Positions 6,322 to 57,024 of a DNA stretch of 64,000 bases are shown here, in pieces. The DNA lies in contig CBDBLO010000002.1 of NCBI GenBank assembly GCA_965207075.1, forward strand, positions 1,440,001 to 1,504,000. Reading direction: 5' to 3'. The first letter of the stretch is position 1. Each line of letters starts with the position of its first letter. A program made the translations under genes and the position numbers. Source of the stretch: Nitrosopumilus sp. GTDB lineage: Archaea; Thermoproteota; Nitrososphaeria; Nitrososphaerales; Nitrosopumilaceae. Under the pieces are notes generated by a model. The model was not told the DNA's origin. It saw only the letters and a program-made list of their open reading frames with translations, and searched no databases.

Positions 6322-9404
<3,083 letters not shown>

Positions 9405-9485
9405 ATGCACGACCTCACAGCAAGCGGCCCCGGGTGGGGGCTCGCCCGCTCGATCCTTGATACGCCACGTTAATGGCGTACTGCA

Positions 9486-11095
<1,610 letters not shown>

Positions 11096-11221
11096 ACATC
11101 TCAGATATTGACCGCTTGATCAAATCCTCATCTCTGTATGCGTGACTGGAGGCCCGTGAATCACAACGTGGCATGTTGCCACACTTCATCACAGGCGCCG
11201 CCTATTGCGAAACGCATGCAG

Positions 11222-11252
11222 ATTATATTATGTCCTAAAAAGCATATAAACC
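11222..11252 (-). promoter_or_regulatory. putative rRNA operon promoter (TATA)
   Basis: AT-rich island reading TTTATATG on the minus strand, upstream of the 16S leader, in GC-rich surroundings. Confidence 0.5.
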
Positions 11253-11716
11253 ATGCGAGAAGCCGCGCGCGCAGGCCCACCGCCCGGGCCTGATCTAGGC
11301 ACGATGCCCGGCGCATGCCCGAGGGCGCACGCTCCAGTTTCCCAAAGATTTCAGGAGGGCCGAGCAACTGCCCTTCGGCGGAAAGGCTGCCTCTCTTCCT
11401 CCGCACGCACCCCGGGGCCCGGCGCCGGCGCGACTGCGGCGCCTCGTAAAACCTAACGCCGATGCGGCGCGGCGCGTTCCCTCTTTGCGCCACGCCAAGC
11501 ACCGCCCGGTTCCTCCAGTCGATTACGCCCGTGCAATAGTAAGGCAGGGACAGATCACGGCCCGCGGCGGGGTTTCAAGATGGGAGGGGCCGCGGCGCGC
11601 CGGCGCGGCGTTACGGCAGGCAGAAGAATCGTGGTCACGGCCACAGTCAGTCGGCGGCGTCACGATCAGCACGCGCCCAGGATTGGTTAAAATTACAAGC
11701 ACGGAAGAATAAACTG

Positions 11717-17563: not shown

Positions 17564-18109
17564 ATGATCCAGACAGAGGCCAGGAGGACGCTCAAGGACG
17601 CGCCCATCATGTGGAGGAGGATAAACTCGATAGGGGTCATAATCGACTGCAACAGCACGTATGCTGCAAAGCTCCAGTACGCAAAGTCGGAGATAATAGG
17701 CAAGACGGTATTTGAGCACGTCCCCAAGGAGTCGTGGGACGGCATGACCAAGTCGCTGACCAGGTGGTTTGAGACGGGCAAGGTCACTGATCAAAAGATC
17801 GTCTTTCTCAAGGAGGACGGCACCAAGTTCCCCGGGCTGCTCCAGGCCACGAGCATCTACGACCGCACGGGCGTGTTGATGGGAAGCAACACCGCGATAT
17901 TCGACCTCGAGGAGATGGCTGCGAAAAGGTCCCTGATCAAGACATGCAATGATTTCATAAGGGACGCCAACAGGCGCCTCGAGGAGATCAGGAGGGAGCA
18001 GTACGAGGTTATGGACGACACCTCAAAGTCCGAGTGCGACGGGCTGAGGCAGATGTTCGAGATGCTGGCAGGCGTCGACCTGGCAGGCATGGTGGACGAC
18101 GCCGCGTGA
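17564..18109 (+). CDS. PAS-domain protein with C-terminal helical region
   Basis: GVIIDCNSTYAAKLQYAKSEIIGKTVFEHVP...KEDGTKFP. Similar to the PAS repeats at 2461-3186. Confidence 0.85.
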   Translation: MIQTEARRTLKDAPIMWRRINSIGVIIDCNSTYAAKLQYAKSEIIGKTVFEHVPKESWDGMTKSLTRWFETGKVTDQKIVFLKEDGTKFPGLLQATSIYDRTGVLMGSNTAIFDLEEMAAKRSLIKTCNDFIRDANRRLEEIRREQYEVMDDTSKSECDGLRQMFEMLAGVDLAGMVDDAA

Positions 18110-18179
18110 GCCGGCTGCGGCGGCAGTATTGGTAGTGGTAGCGGCGGCAACGGCGGCAGCGGCCCAGAAGAGCCGCATC

Positions 18180-20216
<2,037 letters not shown>

Positions 20217-28418: not shown

Positions 28419-29522
28419 ATGATAGGCGCGTCAGAGATGTCCAGCGTGGCAGACGCATACGACGCCGGCGACATCAGGATATGCGTGCTTGGGAGCCACT
28501 CGGCGCTGGAAATAATGGACGGCGCAAAGGACGAGGGATTCAAGACCACCGTATACTGCCAGAGGGGCAGGGAGGCGCCATACAAGAGGTTCGGGAGGAT
28601 CGCCGACGAGGTCGTGGTGGTAGACGAGTTCGGCCACATGCTGTCAGGGGAGCACCAGCAGAAGATGCTGGAGGAGAACACCGTAATCATACCGCACAGG
28701 TCGCTTACTGCGTACCTCGGGTACGGCGCCATAGAGAACGACTTGCGGGTGCCGATATTTGGCAACAGGTCCCTCTTTGCAGCAGAGGAGAGGAACGCAG
28801 CAAGGGGGCAGTACTACCTGCTTGAAAAGGCGGGGATCAGGTACCCGAAGGTCATACAGGATCCCGCCGACATAGCAGGGCCGTGCATCGTAAAGGTGCA
28901 GGAAAAGGACAGGCCGCTGGAGCGCGCGTTCTTTACGGTATCATCATACGCGGACTATGAGGAAAAATCCAGCGCCAAGGTATCTGGCGGCACCGTATCA
29001 GAAGCGGGACTGGCAGAGGCAAGCATAGAGGAGCTGGCGATCGGCACGTACATGAACTTTAACTATTTCCACACCCCGATATCAGACCAGGTCGACTTTA
29101 TAGGGATAGAGAGGAGGCTACAGACCGACATACACGACTACAACGCCCTGCCCGCCGAGCAGCAGATCGACATGGGAATGGCCGGAAGCCTCCAGAACAT
29201 AGAGGTCGGGCACACGCCTGCAAGCATACGCGAGTCGCTGCTAGAAAAGGTGCTTGCCATGGGCGACATGTTCGTGGAGGCGGTCAAAAAGGAATACAGT
29301 CCCGGAGTGATAGGGCCGTTCTCGCTTCAGAGCGTGATAACAAAGGATCTGGAGATGGTAGTGTACGACGTGTCGCTGCGCGTCCCCGGCAACCCCATAG
29401 TGGCCACCACCAGCCCCTATACAAAGTACCAGTACGGCCAGACGTTCGGCGTCGGGAGAAGGATAGCCATGGAGATCAGGCGCGCCGCAAACGACAGCAG
29501 GCTCGGGGACATAGTCACCTGA
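28419..29522 (+). CDS. purP: PurP-family formate:AICAR ligase (paralogue 1)
   Basis: LGSHSALEIMDGAKDEG, PIFGNR, SIRESLL, GPFSLQ and GRRIAMEI motifs. Confidence 0.92.
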   Translation: MIGASEMSSVADAYDAGDIRICVLGSHSALEIMDGAKDEGFKTTVYCQRGREAPYKRFGRIADEVVVVDEFGHMLSGEHQQKMLEENTVIIPHRSLTAYLGYGAIENDLRVPIFGNRSLFAAEERNAARGQYYLLEKAGIRYPKVIQDPADIAGPCIVKVQEKDRPLERAFFTVSSYADYEEKSSAKVSGGTVSEAGLAEASIEELAIGTYMNFNYFHTPISDQVDFIGIERRLQTDIHDYNALPAEQQIDMGMAGSLQNIEVGHTPASIRESLLEKVLAMGDMFVEAVKKEYSPGVIGPFSLQSVITKDLEMVVYDVSLRVPGNPIVATTSPYTKYQYGQTFGVGRRIAMEIRRAANDSRLGDIVT

Positions 29523-31882: not shown

Positions 31883-32296
31883 TCATGCAGGAGTGAATCC
31901 CTGGTATCCACCCGTCTGCTCGGCCTTGTCTTCAAAGTTGGGCTCAAACAGGGATATCAGATAGTCGTCCGGATCCCGGATCACCGCGTTCTTGCCGGCG
32001 TCCTTTTCCACGATATCGCGGTGTATGGTAACTCCCTGAGCCCTCAGCTCCTCGACGGCGGACTTTACGTCCCCCACGATAAAGCCTATCGTGATGCCGT
32101 TCTCTATGGAACTGCCGATGTGCGCGGCCGTAAGCGACGCCGGATGGAGGCTCAGGAGGGCCCCGGAAGCGCCCAGATCGACCCACGCCCTCCTCTGGTT
32201 CTTTATGGGCAGTCCGATAGTCTCGTGGTAGAACTCTAGCGACTTGTCAAGATCCTTCACTGCGAGTATGACGTTGCCCACGTGCTTTATGTTCAC
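31883..32296 (-). CDS. VOC/glyoxalase family protein
   Basis: VILAVKDLDKSLEFYHETIGL and IRDPDDYLISL motifs. GTG start with TTTAAG upstream. Confidence 0.9.
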   Translation of the reverse strand: MNIKHVGNVILAVKDLDKSLEFYHETIGLPIKNQRRAWVDLGASGALLSLHPASLTAAHIGSSIENGITIGFIVGDVKSAVEELRAQGVTIHRDIVEKDAGKNAVIRDPDDYLISLFEPNFEDKAEQTGGYQGFTPA

Positions 32297-32338
32297 GGAT
32301 AGGGTGCGGAGCGGCGCCTTAAATCCATTTTCATTGCA

Positions 32339-32905
32339 GGAACTGCTTCCAGTCCGTGATATTAGCTGGGCATGCCGTAATCGGCAGCCCGGCCAAACAC
32401 CACGCCTGTACTCTGACGTTCTTTCTCCATTCCGCTGCGGGAAAGGGAACGCGCCGGCACTTGGCTCTCGTGCCCCCTCGTGCGGTGCCTGAGGCCGCCG
32501 CCGAACCTCGCTGCCAGTTTGTGCGCGGTGCATGCGTCTTGGATGCCCGCACGCTGTATCCACACGGGAGCGGCGCGCATCCACTCCTGTTCCCGGCGCA
32601 CGGCCGTCAGCTCCTTGTACAGCCCGTACTCGCTCACGGCATCGCCCGACATGATCCTCCCGACGGACCAGTTGTACGCGTGGCGCCGGGCAACGCGGTA
32701 CGAGTCGATGAGGCGCACCTGGTCGGCCGCCAGCGATATGGCGACCCGGTACTTGCGGTATGCATGCAACGCGTAACACGCAAGGTGATCATGTCATTAT
32801 GCCTTGTTTCTAACGTGACAGGCGCGCCGCCGTGTGGCTGCCGGCTGCATCCCGTCCGTTGGCCGGAGCATCAGTCCGGACATATCACTGATTGGAAGCG
32901 GAACC
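32339..32905. mobile_element. 567-bp non-autonomous TIR element (MITE-like) carrying truncated tnpB
   Basis: TIRs GGAACTGCTTCCAGTCCGTGATAT and ATATCACTGATTGGAAGCGGAACC match at 19/24. Flanked by the 8-bp direct repeat TCATTGCA (32331-32338 and 32906-32913). Confidence 0.85.
32362..32769 (-). pseudogene. tnpB: truncated TnpB/Cas12f-like protein (N-terminal WED/REC only)
   Basis: YRKYRVAI...QVRLIDSYRVARRHAYNW, LYKELTAVRREQEWM and IQRAGIQDA match the TnpB N-terminal pattern. No RuvC or zinc ribbon is present. Confidence 0.7.
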
Positions 32906-33124
32906 TCATTGCACCTCGACCATCGTCTCGGTGCGCTCCACCCCGCCAATCGTCTGTATCTGGTATGCCACGTCCTTGAGGTGCGCCAGCTCGTCCACCT
33001 CGATCATGGCCACGGCGTCAAACTGCCCGCTTGTGGGAAAAGAGTCAGACACGGACTTGATCTTTCTGAGCCTGGCCGCGATAAGCTTTTTGGGGGATTT
33101 GACAAGTATGATCGCCCTTACCAT
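32906..33124 (-). CDS. Lrp/AsnC ligand-binding (RAM) domain protein
   Basis: TSGQFDAVAMIEV and IGGVERTETMV motifs. Confidence 0.88.
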   Translation of the reverse strand: MVRAIILVKSPKKLIAARLRKIKSVSDSFPTSGQFDAVAMIEVDELAHLKDVAYQIQTIGGVERTETMVEVQ

Positions 33125-33357
33125 CCCATGTTCACCTCCACCTCAAGCAGCGTCTCTGTCGACGAGATGTCCTTGATCTTCTTAAAGTTCACCACCATCC
33201 CGTTTATCTGGTGTATGTTGCCCTGAAGCAGGACGCTGATGTCGGCCCTGCCGGTTACGACCATCATCTGCTTTATGATCTTGCGCTTTTTTCTGAGTAT
33301 CGCCATCACGTGCTCGATCTGGCCGGCCCTGACTGTAATCAGGCACAGTGCACGCAT
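33118..33357 (-). CDS. Lrp/AsnC ligand-binding (RAM) domain protein
   Basis: VTGRADISV and DISSTETLL motifs. Overlaps the next gene, with an SD (GGAGGTGA) near its 3' end. Confidence 0.85.
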   Translation of the reverse strand: MRALCLITVRAGQIEHVMAILRKKRKIIKQMMVVTGRADISVLLQGNIHQINGMVVNFKKIKDISSTETLLEVEVNMGW

Positions 33358-33836
33358 GTGTATGATACGGGGACAGCACGGATAAACATTTGGCAAGACG
33401 CAGTGTCTGCACGATTCCCCAAGCGGCCCCTCCGAAAGGGTGCGGCCCTGCAGCAGGCACAAGCCGTCCTACTGCCCCGCAGGCCGGACCGGCGTGCCAC
33501 CGCGCCTCCAGGCCGTGGCGTCGACTGGCGTGTGATATGCCGACGGCAGGGCGCAGGCAGCGCTTCCAGGCCGGCGGACAGTACGGACAGGCATGGTGCA
33601 TTACACGCCTTGATGCCCTGCGGGCGCATTGCGCATTCTCAGGATCCGTGCTTGACGGGCATGACGGCAGCGGCGTTCTGCCCGGGAGGTCGGCGAATTG
33701 TGCAACGCGCTGGCAGGACGCGCACCACAAGCCAGGCAGCGTGAAAAGGCGCACGTGCTGCAGGCGGGCCTGCTGCCCCGCGCACATACGCGCATGTATA
33801 GATACGCGCATACAGGCAGATTCCGCTGCCGACACC

Positions 33837-44311: not shown

Positions 44312-45352
44312 ATGGCAGAGCCCGTCTCCGTGGCAACCCTGGGCTCGCACTGCGCGCTGCAGGTGCTAAAGGGCGCAAGCGACGAGGGGCTCAGGACCGT
44401 CCTCGTGTGCGAAAAGAGGCGCGAGCGCCTCTACAAGAGGTTCCCGTTCATAGACGACATGATCACAGTAGACTCGTTTCGAGAGATACTTGCAGAGCCC
44501 TGCCAGGACCGGCTGCGGGAATCCAACGCGGTGCTGGTTCCCCACGGCACCCTGATCGCGCAGATGAGCTCGGACGAGATAGAGTCCATCAGGACGCCCG
44601 TGTTCGGAAACAAGTGGATACTGCGGTGGGAATCGGACCGCTCCATGAAGGAGGAGCTCATGCGAAGGGCCGACCTGAGGATGCCGGACCCCATAGCCAC
44701 CCCCGAGGACATCGACGGGGCAACAATAGTAAAGCGTCAGGGGGCCGCAGGCGGCAAGGGATACTTTATCGCGGCAAGCGCTGACGACTACAGTGCAAAG
44801 CGCGACACGCTTGTCAAGAGCGGCACCATATCTGCAGACGAGCCGCTCTACATACAGAGGTACGCGTCGGGGGTGCTTGCATACCTGCAGTTCTTTTACT
44901 CGCCCCTGCGCGGCGACATAGAGTTCTTCGGGGCCGACCAGAGGCACGAGTCGGACATAGAGGGGCTGGCCCGGGTCCCCGCAAAAGAGCAGCTTGCCGG
45001 AGGCGTCTCCGACGTGCCGTCATTCAACGTGATAGGAAACACGCCGATCGTGCTGCGCGAGTCCCTGCTCGAGGAGGCGTACGCAATGGGCGAGAGGTTT
45101 GTAAGCGCCTCGCGCGACGCGGTGCCGCCCGGGATGAACGGGCCGTTCTGCATCGAGGGGGTATACGACGAGGACGCGAAGTTCACGGCCTTTGAGTTCT
45201 CGGCAAGGATAGTGGCGGGCACCAACATCTACATGGACGGCTCGCCCTACTACTCACTCCTGTACGGCGAGCCCATGAGCATGGGGAGACGCATAGCCCG
45301 CGAGATAAGGCAGGCGTCGGAGGCAGGCAGGCTTGGCGACGTGACCACGTGA
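44312..45352 (+). CDS. purP: PurP-family formate:AICAR ligase (paralogue 2)
   Basis: LGSHCALQVLKGA, GAAGGKGYF, LRESLL, FEFSARIVAGTN and MGRRIAREI motifs. Confidence 0.93.
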   Translation: MAEPVSVATLGSHCALQVLKGASDEGLRTVLVCEKRRERLYKRFPFIDDMITVDSFREILAEPCQDRLRESNAVLVPHGTLIAQMSSDEIESIRTPVFGNKWILRWESDRSMKEELMRRADLRMPDPIATPEDIDGATIVKRQGAAGGKGYFIAASADDYSAKRDTLVKSGTISADEPLYIQRYASGVLAYLQFFYSPLRGDIEFFGADQRHESDIEGLARVPAKEQLAGGVSDVPSFNVIGNTPIVLRESLLEEAYAMGERFVSASRDAVPPGMNGPFCIEGVYDEDAKFTAFEFSARIVAGTNIYMDGSPYYSLLYGEPMSMGRRIAREIRQASEAGRLGDVTT

Positions 45353-54782: not shown

Positions 54783-55536
54783 GACTCGCGTTACACGCAC
54801 TTGTAATTAACTAATTTTACGGGCGCGGCGGGATTGCATAGTCAGCTTTCTATGAATTAGAGAGTCGATAGGTCACGGCCGGATCCCCAAGCCTGTCCTC
54901 GAACCCAGGCCTGCCGAATAAAACAGTCCATGTCGTGTCGGGGTGCCGCTGGTTTTTTTTTTTGCTGTACCCTGACGCCGGTCATATTAACAGCGCGAGC
55001 TCGCTTATGGCTATCGCAGCTACGTCAGCAGACATACTGGCTGTATATATGATCAGTATGGCCAGCGCCAAGATTACTGCGGATCTGACGTATCCGAATC
55101 CGTTCAGTATACGGATCGCTTTTACATGCAGCAGGAGCGTCCACCCTATGAGGAGCAGTCCGACGGCATGTTGTATAGTGCCACCACCGAACGCAAACCA
55201 CGTAGTCCTAGTCAGCCCGTCATGGAAGAAGGGCTCCGGAACCGCAAGATCGTACAGGCCCCATGCTGCACGGGCCGCCACAATCCACAGCACGACGGGC
55301 ACCATACAGTACGCCAGCGTCGGGAAGGCTCTTCGAAGGCTGCGGTTTCCGCCCCACCTCCTTCCAATCCAGAATATTCCAAGGAGTGGCAGCAGTACAT
55401 CTATGGGGCTCGTAACCAAGGCATGTAGAGCGCCATCCCACGCGATCCCGCTCATCCAGGCTCCAAAGACATTCGGGGGGAACAGCGCGCCCAAGACAGC
55501 CACGGACACAAGTACCGCAACGGACGGCGCAAGGTA

Positions 55537-56630
55537 TAGTGTGACGCAAAAGTCTTCGCGGCTGTCAGAACTGTGTGCGCAACCTTTTTTGATCACCGAA
55601 TACGTCGCCCGGCATGGATGAGAAAGACAGGGACCTGCTCATTCGGGCCTACAAGGCAGAAAAAGACCACCTCATAGGAAATAGGATCCACGCAGTCTGC
55701 ATGGTCAAGATCAACGGATTGAAGGCATCCGAGGTCGCCTCGCTGTGCTACTGCGACGCGCGCACCGTCTCCAGCTGGGTTCGGCGCTTTGACAAGGACG
55801 GCCTTGCAGGCCTGAAGGACAGGCCCCGTTCGGGCAGGCCTCCAAAGGTGGCGATGAAGAGGATCAGGAAGATCGTTGCGGGAGGAGGCGGCATCACGAC
55901 GCCAAGGGTGCTCAAGAATGCCATACGCGAAAGGCACGGGGTGGAGTACCACATAACAAACGTCAGGAAGATAATGCACAGGCTCGGCATGTCGGCCAAG
56001 ACGTCCCAGGCGGTGCACGTCAACCGGGCGGAGATGGAGGAGATCAGGGAGTGGCAGCGGGACACAAAAAGGCGGATCGCGTACCTGAAATCGCGGGGAT
56101 TTGTCACCGCGGTCGTTGACGAGTCCATATTCATCAACGACCCGGGAAGCGGCGTGAAATACTGGTCGCCGAGGGGCGTCCCCGTCATAACCGCATACAA
56201 TGGAAGCCACGACAGGGTAGTGGCGTACGGCGCGCTCACGACGGACGGCAGGCAGTTTGTCAGGACGTACAAGGGATTCGACAAGGAGACGTTCCTGAAG
56301 TACCTGAAGGCGCTGGTCGGCCACTTTGGCAGGACCGCGGTAATCATGGACAATGCGCCGCAGCACAAGGCCAGAATCGTACGGGAATACCTGGAGGGGG
56401 AGCCAAACGCGAGGATCATATGGCTTCCCAAGGCGACGCCGGAACTCAGCGTGGTCGAGGAGTACTGGCACCAGTCAAAGCGTGATCTGCTGGTCAGCGA
56501 ATATTACTCGACGGTGGTGCATATGCGCCGTGCCTTGTCAGAGTATTTTAGGACGGCGCGCCCCAAACTCGATGCAATGAAATTCATCAATAGAACATCC
56601 CTACCCCGCAAAAACTTTTGATCGTCACTA
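55537..56630 (+). mobile_element. IS630-family insertion sequence
   Basis: TA duplication at 55535-36 and 56631-32. Imperfect TIRs TAGTGTGACGCAAAAGTCTTCGCGG and (reverse complement) TAGTGACGATCAAAAGTTTTTGCGG. Confidence 0.9.
55614..56621 (+). CDS. IS630-family transposase
   Basis: HTH with RPRSGRPPK, and the DDE triad in VDES, MDNAPQH and PELSVVEEYW. Single uninterrupted frame. Confidence 0.95.
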   Translation: MDEKDRDLLIRAYKAEKDHLIGNRIHAVCMVKINGLKASEVASLCYCDARTVSSWVRRFDKDGLAGLKDRPRSGRPPKVAMKRIRKIVAGGGGITTPRVLKNAIRERHGVEYHITNVRKIMHRLGMSAKTSQAVHVNRAEMEEIREWQRDTKRRIAYLKSRGFVTAVVDESIFINDPGSGVKYWSPRGVPVITAYNGSHDRVVAYGALTTDGRQFVRTYKGFDKETFLKYLKALVGHFGRTAVIMDNAPQHKARIVREYLEGEPNARIIWLPKATPELSVVEEYWHQSKRDLLVSEYYSTVVHMRRALSEYFRTARPKLDAMKFINRTSLPRKNF

Positions 56631-57024
56631 TATGTTGCAGGATTGCAGGATATGTGGCGGAGTGTCGCGGTTGGCCGCACCATTATGCCATAAAGCGCCA
56701 CAGCTGCGCCTTGCATGCCCTTCCCGTTCACGTCAGCCGTCATCCACGCGCCACATCCGCTATTCTTGCAGGCCTGACGCACCCCTGATCCAGTCGGAGG
56801 TTGTCAGCATCGTAGACGCAAACCGGATGGGTTCCTCCCGCGTCCGCTCCTGAAAAAAAGGAGCGGCGCCACAGCGTAATTGTAGATCCGGCCCTCATGC
56901 GCGGGTTGACGGATCGGGCTATTTAACCAGCACGGAAGGCGCAAGGAGTGGCGCACCGCTGATCACGAACGTTACAGCAAAAAAAAAGGCAATGTTATAA
57001 TTGACTCGGGGCTGCGTGCATCCC

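Follow-up and report, generated by a model that had tools for sequence, protein, structure and literature searches.

A truncated tnpB cassette with terminal inverted repeats and an 8-bp target duplication in Nitrosopumilus, probably mobilized in trans

In a 64,000-nt stretch of the genome of Nitrosopumilus sp. (GenBank assembly GCA_965207075.1, contig CBDBLO010000002.1, positions 1,440,001 to 1,504,000; called here the window, and numbered from its first letter), a short segment carries a fragment of tnpB between terminal inverted repeats (TIRs) and an exact 8-bp direct repeat. TnpB is thought to persist by restoring elements that excise scarlessly, namely those of the Y1 or serine recombinase type. 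The locus raises the question of what kind of element this is and which enzyme moved it. Our analysis indicates that the segment is probably a deleted copy of a 1521-bp, non-autonomous element of Nitrosopumilaceae that has TIRs and tnpB as its only gene, and that belongs to a family mobilized in trans. The structural part of this reading is close to certain, and the part that concerns a partner transposase is something we infer and consider likely.

Ends and flanking repeats of the window element

Read directly from the window sequence, the segment spans 567 bp (32339-32905), opens with GG, closes with CC, and is abutted at both ends by an exact 8-bp direct repeat, TCATTGCA (32331-32338 and 32906-32913). 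Its 24-nt ends, GGAACTGCTTCCAGTCCGTGATAT (32339-32362) and, in reverse complement, GGTTCCGCTTCCAATCAGTGATAT (32882-32905), are inverted relative to each other and match at 19 of 24 positions, and repeat finding extends the match to 25 nt at 80%. These features had been pointed out in an initial annotation made from the sequence alone, and both the sequence and shuffle tests bear them out. A degenerate TIR pattern allowing up to three mismatches occurs at two places in the 64-kb window, both of them the ends of the element (0 expected, from 100 shuffles). In an unbiased test for identical 8-mer pairs 200-3000 bp apart, whose adjacent inner 24-mers are inverted at 19/24 or better, a single one of 5721 8-mer pairs in the window qualified, namely the 32339-32905 element, compared with none in 30 block shuffles. 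The presence of TIRs and a target-site duplication at 32339-32905 is thus confirmed as real and far beyond chance. The element comprises the following features:

32331-32338, no strand: target-site duplication on the tnpB 3' side, TCATTGCA (TGCAATGA in tnpB orientation)
32339-32362, minus strand: terminal inverted repeat "RE" at the tnpB 3' end, all 24 nt identical in the window copy and in the L001 and L002 copies described below
32339-32480, minus strand: 3' part of the element that survives the deletion (98.6% identity with L001 11244-11386)
32362-32769, minus strand: truncated tnpB open reading frame (ORF) of 135 aa, with the RuvC and zinc-finger parts deleted
32476-32480, minus strand: deletion junction, with the 5-nt microhomology CGAGG (tnpB orientation) inside longer imperfect direct repeats
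32770-32881, minus strand: 5' untranslated leader, from the TIR to the tnpB start
32882-32905, minus strand: terminal inverted repeat "LE" at the tnpB 5' end
32906-32913, no strand: second copy of the target-site duplication, in which the AsnC-type gene upstream has its stop codon

A truncated, TnpB-derived ORF

The 135-aa ORF, whose TAA stop (32362-32364) overlaps the innermost TIR base, had been likened to the TnpB N-terminus with its stop at the TIR edge; its relatives confirm this and show that the C-terminal 38 residues come from TnpB as well. A profile check of the ORF, which had been proposed at the same time, was only partly positive: NCBIfam returned IS607_TnpB and nothing else (E = 0.0028; residues 6-40 vs profile 5-39), whereas Pfam gave no match for the ORF alone even at E ≤ 10. 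A sequence search of the PDB found only a chance match to a ribosomal protein (E = 0.78). By contrast with the blank in Pfam, a HMMER search with the ORF against 1.84 billion representative proteins (E ≤ 1e-3) gave 11 matches, one of which (P0007) is an unrelated repeat protein. Among these, Pfam identified Cas12f1-like_TNB in the 450-aa P0004 (E = 1.3e-16), OrfB_IS605 and HTH_OrfB_IS605 in P0002, HTH_OrfB_IS605 in P0011 and P0005, and the end of the TNB domain in P0003, and assigned no family to the short P0001, P0006, P0008, P0009, and P0010.

Residues 1-98 of the ORF align to residues 1-104 of P0004 (48/104 identical, E = 2e-21), and residues 98-135 align to the last 38 residues of P0003 (37/38 identical), a TnpB fragment which is itself a C-terminal end and aligns to P0004 355-432. 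By these two alignments, the ORF is the beginning of TnpB (residues 1-98) joined in frame to its extreme C-terminus (residues 98-135). On the evidence of these relatives, direct family scans being nearly blank, the ORF is TnpB-derived.

Full-length copies and their ends

To locate further copies, an alignment of the four closest sequences was used as the query (a 10-sequence alignment was too divergent and was discarded). This search matched 78 pattern stretches, of which five were confirmed (L001 to L005), four of them in one 2.1-Mb Nitrosopumilus sp. chromosome, a metagenome-assembled genome, and one on a 2-kb Nitrosopumilaceae contig. L001 and L002 hold full-length elements of 1521 bp (9865-11385 in each), which are 98.5% identical to each other and 95-99% identical to the window element over the shared parts. 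In the window, L001, and L002 copies, homology starts exactly at GG and stops at CC; since this is so in three independent insertions, the TIR tips are the true boundaries of the element.

The sole gene of the L001 element (9998-11362, with 133 bp before and 23 bp after it) encodes a 454-aa TnpB that passes the NCBIfam guided_TnpB model (125 bits, cut-off 100), matches TnpB/Cas12f chains in the PDB at about 1e-14, and scores 76 and 67 bits on IS607_TnpB and IS200_TnpB, both far below the cut-offs. This protein has GVDRG, LEDL, and QADVNAA motifs and two CxxC pairs, which we take to be the RuvC triad and the zinc finger, and the motifs are present in L001 to L004. The L001-type TnpB is accordingly predicted from its sequence to be a catalytically complete RNA-guided nuclease.

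Aligned to L001, the window element corresponds to 9865-10294 (95.3%, 430 bp) followed directly by 11244-11386 (98.6%, 143 bp), and residues 1-98 of its ORF are 92% identical to the L001 TnpB. About 949 bp (L001 10295-11243) are therefore missing from the window copy, an in-frame deletion that lies wholly within tnpB and takes away the equivalent of the RuvC triad and the zinc finger. The suggestion that the segment is a deletion derivative holds. The competing one, that of a miniature inverted-repeat transposable element (MITE) that had picked up tnpB DNA, fits less well, as the window element is a reduced version of a TIR element whose only gene is tnpB. We regard the window copy as an internally deleted and presumably non-functional remnant, which could move at most passively. 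For annotation purposes, the locus is a dead insertion sequence (IS) remnant between two intact host genes.

Two further lineages were recovered. The L004 element (1422 bp, 9909-11330) encodes a TnpB 56% identical to that of L001, and the L003 TnpB is 54% identical to it, so that identity between lineages is about 54-56%. None of the four full-length copies (L001 to L004, three lineages) has a transposase gene, a remnant of a second gene, or room for one: leaders measure 92-133 bp, tails 4-30 bp, and the TnpBs 441-454 aa. The absence of a second gene in all four copies indicates that the tnpB-only layout predates the split of the three lineages. In L005, a broken tnpB of the same clade lies at the contig end (1650-2055), and there the start codon falls directly within GGAATCATG, the tip motif of the L003 element, which looks like the result of a leader deletion.

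The TIRs match at 17-20 of 24 positions in the five copies of the three lineages, and exact 8-bp duplications flank three of the five copies, in two lineages. The L004 element is bounded by 24-nt inverted ends of its own, which match at 19/24, and by an exact 8-bp duplication, TAAAAAGA. The flanks of the window-type copies read as follows:

Window, tnpB orientation: left TGCAATGA, right TGCAATGA
L001, tnpB orientation: left TCGCCAAG, right TCGCCAAG
L002, tnpB orientation: left TGAGAACC (9857-9864), right TCAACAAG (11386-11393); unmatched, no duplication

The three duplicated 8-mers differ in sequence and are therefore duplications of the target, not element sequence. A duplication of constant length right next to the TIRs was thus found in the window, L001, and L004 copies, imperfectly in L003, and not in L002. 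A scan of all five sources (exact 8-bp repeat, with adjacent 24-mers inverted at 17/24 or better) returned the tnpB elements of the window, L001, and L004 together with one IS of the IS5 family, compared with 1 in 200 shuffled sequences; on this count and on that of the block shuffles, a chance origin of the window TIRs and duplication was rejected. When aligned from their tips, ends of the window type and of the L004 type agree at 13/22 positions beyond GG (RE pair, p about 0.001), and the L003 ends were not demonstrably related to either type. As for a shared target-adjacent motif upstream of the duplications, the 3 nt before the 8-mer are AGG, TTG, CTG, and TTG, and GGC or GCC in L003, a sample of five sites that is too small to speak for or against one. 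It should be noted that L003 has matching hairpins before the tnpB start (TTATTAC...GTAATAA) and across the stop (GTCATTAC AGCG GTAATGAC), which recall the subterminal palindromes of IS605-type elements, yet sit within an element with 17/24 inverted tips.

A predicted guide-RNA region

RNA structure was analyzed on the tnpB strand of the four full-length elements (L001 to L004, three independent lineages), over their final 200 nt. A shared structure of 27 pairs is predicted, 9 of them with compensatory changes on both sides across the three lineages. Within it, 92.6% of cells are paired, vs 29-48% once partners are shifted by 1-3 columns. On four measures none of 500 shuffles reached the observed value, and on a fifth (further pair types) 381 of 500 did. 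The L001 region alone folds with z = -2.3, and at the window-type 3' end a strong hairpin occupies the stretch 27-50 nt inward of the tip. These results suggest that the last ~200 nt of tnpB also encode a structured omega RNA scaffold, predicted to run to the end of the element.

By coordinates, the 3' 142 nt of this region remain in the window copy. They comprise the terminal hairpin along with helices 4 and 5; helix 3 has been lost, as have the 5' arms of helices 1 and 2. The 3' TIR would at the same time close the guide-RNA scaffold as its final 24 nt, acting both as transposon end and as RNA 3' end; its identity in the three window-type copies fits such a double duty.

Search for a partner transposase

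ORFs of at least 170 aa were scanned with Pfam, which covered 60 of 62 such ORFs in the window (two that overlap the element were left out) and 69 of 77 in the loci (eight were excluded for overlapping tnpB or further ORFs in a different frame). The scan found one IS630-family gene (window 55614-56618) and two IS5-family genes (L001 1828-3027 and 17614-18630), all confirmed by NCBIfam; the second IS5-like gene (17614-18630) scores under the cut-off of its model. No IS6, IS1595, or IS1 transposase was seen among the scanned ORFs of the window and loci. The GG tips and the 8-bp duplications would fit these families, which the initial annotation had named, and the ends may resemble the TIRs of IS6-family elements. 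The element itself contains no Y1 HUH transposase and, having no second gene, no serine recombinase TnpA; outside it, the scan for a Y1 HUH enzyme covered ORFs of at least 170 aa and would miss a TnpA of ~140 aa. In a relaxed search for window-type TIRs, 23 matches reached at least 16/24, of which six are the elements' own ends (21-24/24) and the other 17 stand at 16-17/24.

Two of these genes belong to recognizable ISs. The first (window 55536-56633) is an apparently intact IS of the IS630 family with a 335-aa transposase (transpos_IS630, 165 bits, cut-off 100), imperfect inverted ends of ~27 nt that start from TATAGTG (TATAGTGTGACG...), and TA on both sides; it was rejected as a partner, its ends being unrelated to the TIRs of the tnpB elements. 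The second (L001 1814-3306) is an IS of the IS5 family located 6.5 kb from the L001 tnpB element, with a 400-aa transposase (transpos_IS5_2, 188 bits), perfect 18-nt TIRs (AACTTTGTTTCCTAATTC), and an 8-bp duplication, GCCATGAG. An enzyme that duplicates 8 bp therefore exists in that genome. As a partner, this IS5-family IS fared poorly, since its tips match the L004 ends at 10-12/22 and the others at 6-9/22, and with gaps allowed the scores do not exceed those of shuffles (827 and 120 of 1000 reach them); it is a weak lead only.

Genomic context and distribution

Two host genes flank the element:

31883-32299, minus strand: glyoxalase/VOC family protein, 138 aa, whose start lies 31 nt past the left repeat copy
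32906-33124, minus strand: stand-alone Lrp/AsnC ligand-binding-domain protein, 72 aa (AsnC_trans_reg, Pfam E = 1.4e-8)

As the initial annotation had stated, the right repeat copy corresponds to the last codons and the TGA stop of the AsnC-type gene, which is intact despite the insertion. Given that the glyoxalase gene starts 31 nt beyond the duplication, the insertion parts it from the AsnC-type gene. Upstream of the latter, a minus-strand ORF (33118-33462, 7-nt overlap) appears by eye to encode a second stand-alone ligand-binding-domain protein. The archaeal nature of the window shows in its 16S and 23S rRNA genes (6398-11002), a CdvA gene, and a G+C content of about 60%. It also contains two DUF1246 + DUF1297 paralogues at 28419-29519 and 44312-45349, with 15 kb between them.

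A search with the L001 TnpB retrieved 31 proteins (E ≤ 1e-20, 46-96% identity), two of which carry a source name (Thaumarchaeota/Nitrososphaerota and Nitrosopumilaceae). For ten of the 31 (the search includes P0012-P0040), the only known contigs measure 1.4-2.3 kb, close to the length of the element itself, as is expected because multi-copy repeats break metagenome assemblies. A tblastn search of plasmids with the same protein gave 1918 records, all in the <60% identity band and at best 25-32% among the matches listed, and thus no close relatives.

Discussion

The intact element consists of 24-nt TIRs, a 133-bp leader, and a single tnpB, with a predicted guide-RNA scaffold at the 3' end, and its insertion duplicates 8 bp of the target. 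Recombination at the 5-nt microhomology removed about 949 bp of tnpB from the window copy, leaving an in-frame fusion of the N- and C-termini with no nuclease domain and a scaffold shortened on its 5' side. We propose that the family is moved in trans by a transposase that binds the symmetric ends and cuts the target with an 8-bp stagger, most likely a DDE enzyme from an unlinked IS, and TnpB with its RNA may act as selfish cargo that cuts unoccupied alleles, as in other TnpB systems. Locally, the window copy would have separated the AsnC-type gene from the downstream glyoxalase gene.

Several observations weigh against this proposal. The full-length L002 copy has no duplication (TGAGAACC vs TCAACAAG), which suggests recombination between copies or a rearrangement next to it; a copy with the complementary flanks was not present among L001 to L005. 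In L003, the repeat is 7 bp long (CTGACGG) and displaced by 2 bp at one end, the TIRs match at 17/24, and the IS605-like subterminal hairpins lie at 9962-9990 and 11338-11357. The TIRs of the three lineages differ greatly, which is awkward for a single partner enzyme, and every insertion site is known in its occupied form alone. The RNA evidence comes from three independent lineages only, and Rfam gave no match to the full-length element at E ≤ 1. Finally, no partner transposase with matching ends was found in ~147 kb (the 64-kb window and ~83 kb of L001 to L005, parts of three genomes, two of about 2 Mb each), no window-type TIR-like sequence outside the element ends rises above 16-17/24 in the window and the loci, and the ends of the three DDE genes seen are not significantly like the TIRs.

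TIRs together with a fixed 8-bp duplication are the product of a DDE enzyme, and the initial annotation placed that enzyme inside the element, with an autonomous form carrying a DDE transposase and tnpB within the same TIRs and the tnpB-only copies as its derivatives. Composites of this kind with inverted ends exist in other prokaryotes, alongside solo TnpBs (PMC10691335), and only five loci of the present family were read. The search for full-length copies in relatives that had been called for did yield a complete tnpB with the same ends in L001 and L002, but no DDE transposase, and none of the four full-length copies of the three lineages has a second gene, a remnant, or space for one. Considering also that the window deletion lies wholly inside tnpB, we regard a composite parent as unlikely.

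Another explanation is that of an ordinary IS200/IS605 (IS1341-group) or IS607 element, served by a Y1 or serine TnpA, with ends that are subterminal hairpins and repeats that are incidental. It draws on the sub-threshold scores of the TnpB on the IS607_TnpB and IS200_TnpB models, on the hairpins of L003 and of the window-type 3' end, and on the GG with which most IS607 elements end, according to a 2026 review (PMC13565253). Both families, however, including the tnpB-only IS1341 group, are defined by the lack of TIRs and of target duplications (PMC13565253; PMC3119063). In the present family, three insertions from two lineages have exact 8-bp duplications that abut 24-nt inverted ends, and the hairpins can equally be attributed to the guide RNA, all of which makes this explanation quite improbable.

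Barely credible is a mechanism with no separate transposase, in which the RNA-guided TnpB makes a staggered cut and insertion with fill-in gives the 8-bp duplication: Cas12-type nucleases do leave staggered ends and no partner was found, but the symmetric TIRs imply a protein that recognizes both ends, we know of no strand-transfer activity of TnpB, the three duplicated 8-mers are unrelated with no shared target sequence evident, and the search covered only ~147 kb of three genomes. The mobility that haloarchaeal tnpB-only elements seem to have without an intact tnpA (PMC3119063) is a further point in favor of such a mechanism.

Mobilization of tnpB-only TIR cassettes in trans thus remains our preferred explanation. 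Tentatively, and with slightly less than even confidence, we extend it to the whole thaumarchaeal clade: these TnpBs and their guide RNAs may have lived for long only as transposase-less TIR cassettes that parasitize an unlinked, 8-bp-duplicating transposase, in a group of at least 31 protein clusters, with three lineages that are about 54-56% identical at the protein level. If so, the partner would be of a type outside those named for TnpB, namely IS630, ISL2, and IS1031, and RNA-guided homing would be kept alongside duplication-making transposition without scarless excision. IS630 duplicates TA, and the ISL2 and IS1031 groups duplicate 2-3 bp; the 8-bp duplication of the present family is unlike these lengths. 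Long-kept tnpB genes in cassettes with TIRs and duplications would offer a natural test of whether the benefit provided by TnpB extends to other transposition chemistries. In addition, the full-length relatives are archaeal TnpBs that appear intact, are compact (441-454 aa), and have a defined RNA region, and may be of interest to tool developers.

Comparison with known systems

A tnpB bounded by TIRs and lacking a transposase is a rare combination, but one of a kind already described in 2023, in a work which may already include the present clade (PMC10691335). There, Altae-Tran et al. (PNAS 2023) report inverted terminal repeats around six DDE-associated TnpB branches (DDE-1 to DDE-6), accompanied by solo TnpBs within nearly identical ends, which makes the premise that prokaryotic TnpB never occurs in TIR elements outdated. 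These elements resemble the present family in having tnpB within 250 bp of an end, symmetric inverted ends, and some copies without a transposase that are presumed to move in trans; the present family differs in that no transposase-bearing relative was found in the loci read and in its Nitrosopumilaceae host. The 2026 review names ISL2, IS630, and IS1031 as TnpB partners (PMC13565253). Krupovic et al. (2019) list thaumarchaeal IS families, with no mention of such tnpB-only TIR elements in the passages searched (PMC6563490), and our literature search turned up neither a described tnpB-only element that duplicates 8 bp nor reports of such elements from Thaumarchaeota.

Among tnpB-only elements, the IS1341 group resembles the present family in having a single tnpB that fills ~1.5 kb, a guide-RNA region (predicted in the present case) that overlaps with the gene's 3' end, and frequent internal deletions (PMC3119063). 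Unlike the present family, IS200/IS605 elements, the IS1341 group included, have neither TIRs nor a target duplication and insert 3' of a fixed 4-5-nt target, whereas the present family duplicates 8 bp of different sequences. IS607 elements have a serine recombinase and no TIRs or duplication, whereas here there are TIRs and a duplication and no second gene. The window copy itself is comparable to MITEs and mobile insertion cassettes, with TIRs, a target duplication, no transposase, and a MITE-like size of 567 bp; the family differs from them in that its full-length form carries a large, functional-looking gene, and its only known short copy, of 567 bp and with an ORF that is dead, does not show MITE-type amplification.

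A parallel in layout is found in the TIR transposons that carry Fanzor, which likewise have a TnpB-type nuclease as cargo, TIRs, and target duplications (PMC3627910; PMC13565253). The present elements differ from these in being prokaryotic, much smaller, and without a transposase in cis. Taking this likeness of layout into account, tnpB cassettes with TIRs can be seen as a prokaryotic counterpart of the capture of Fanzor by transposons.

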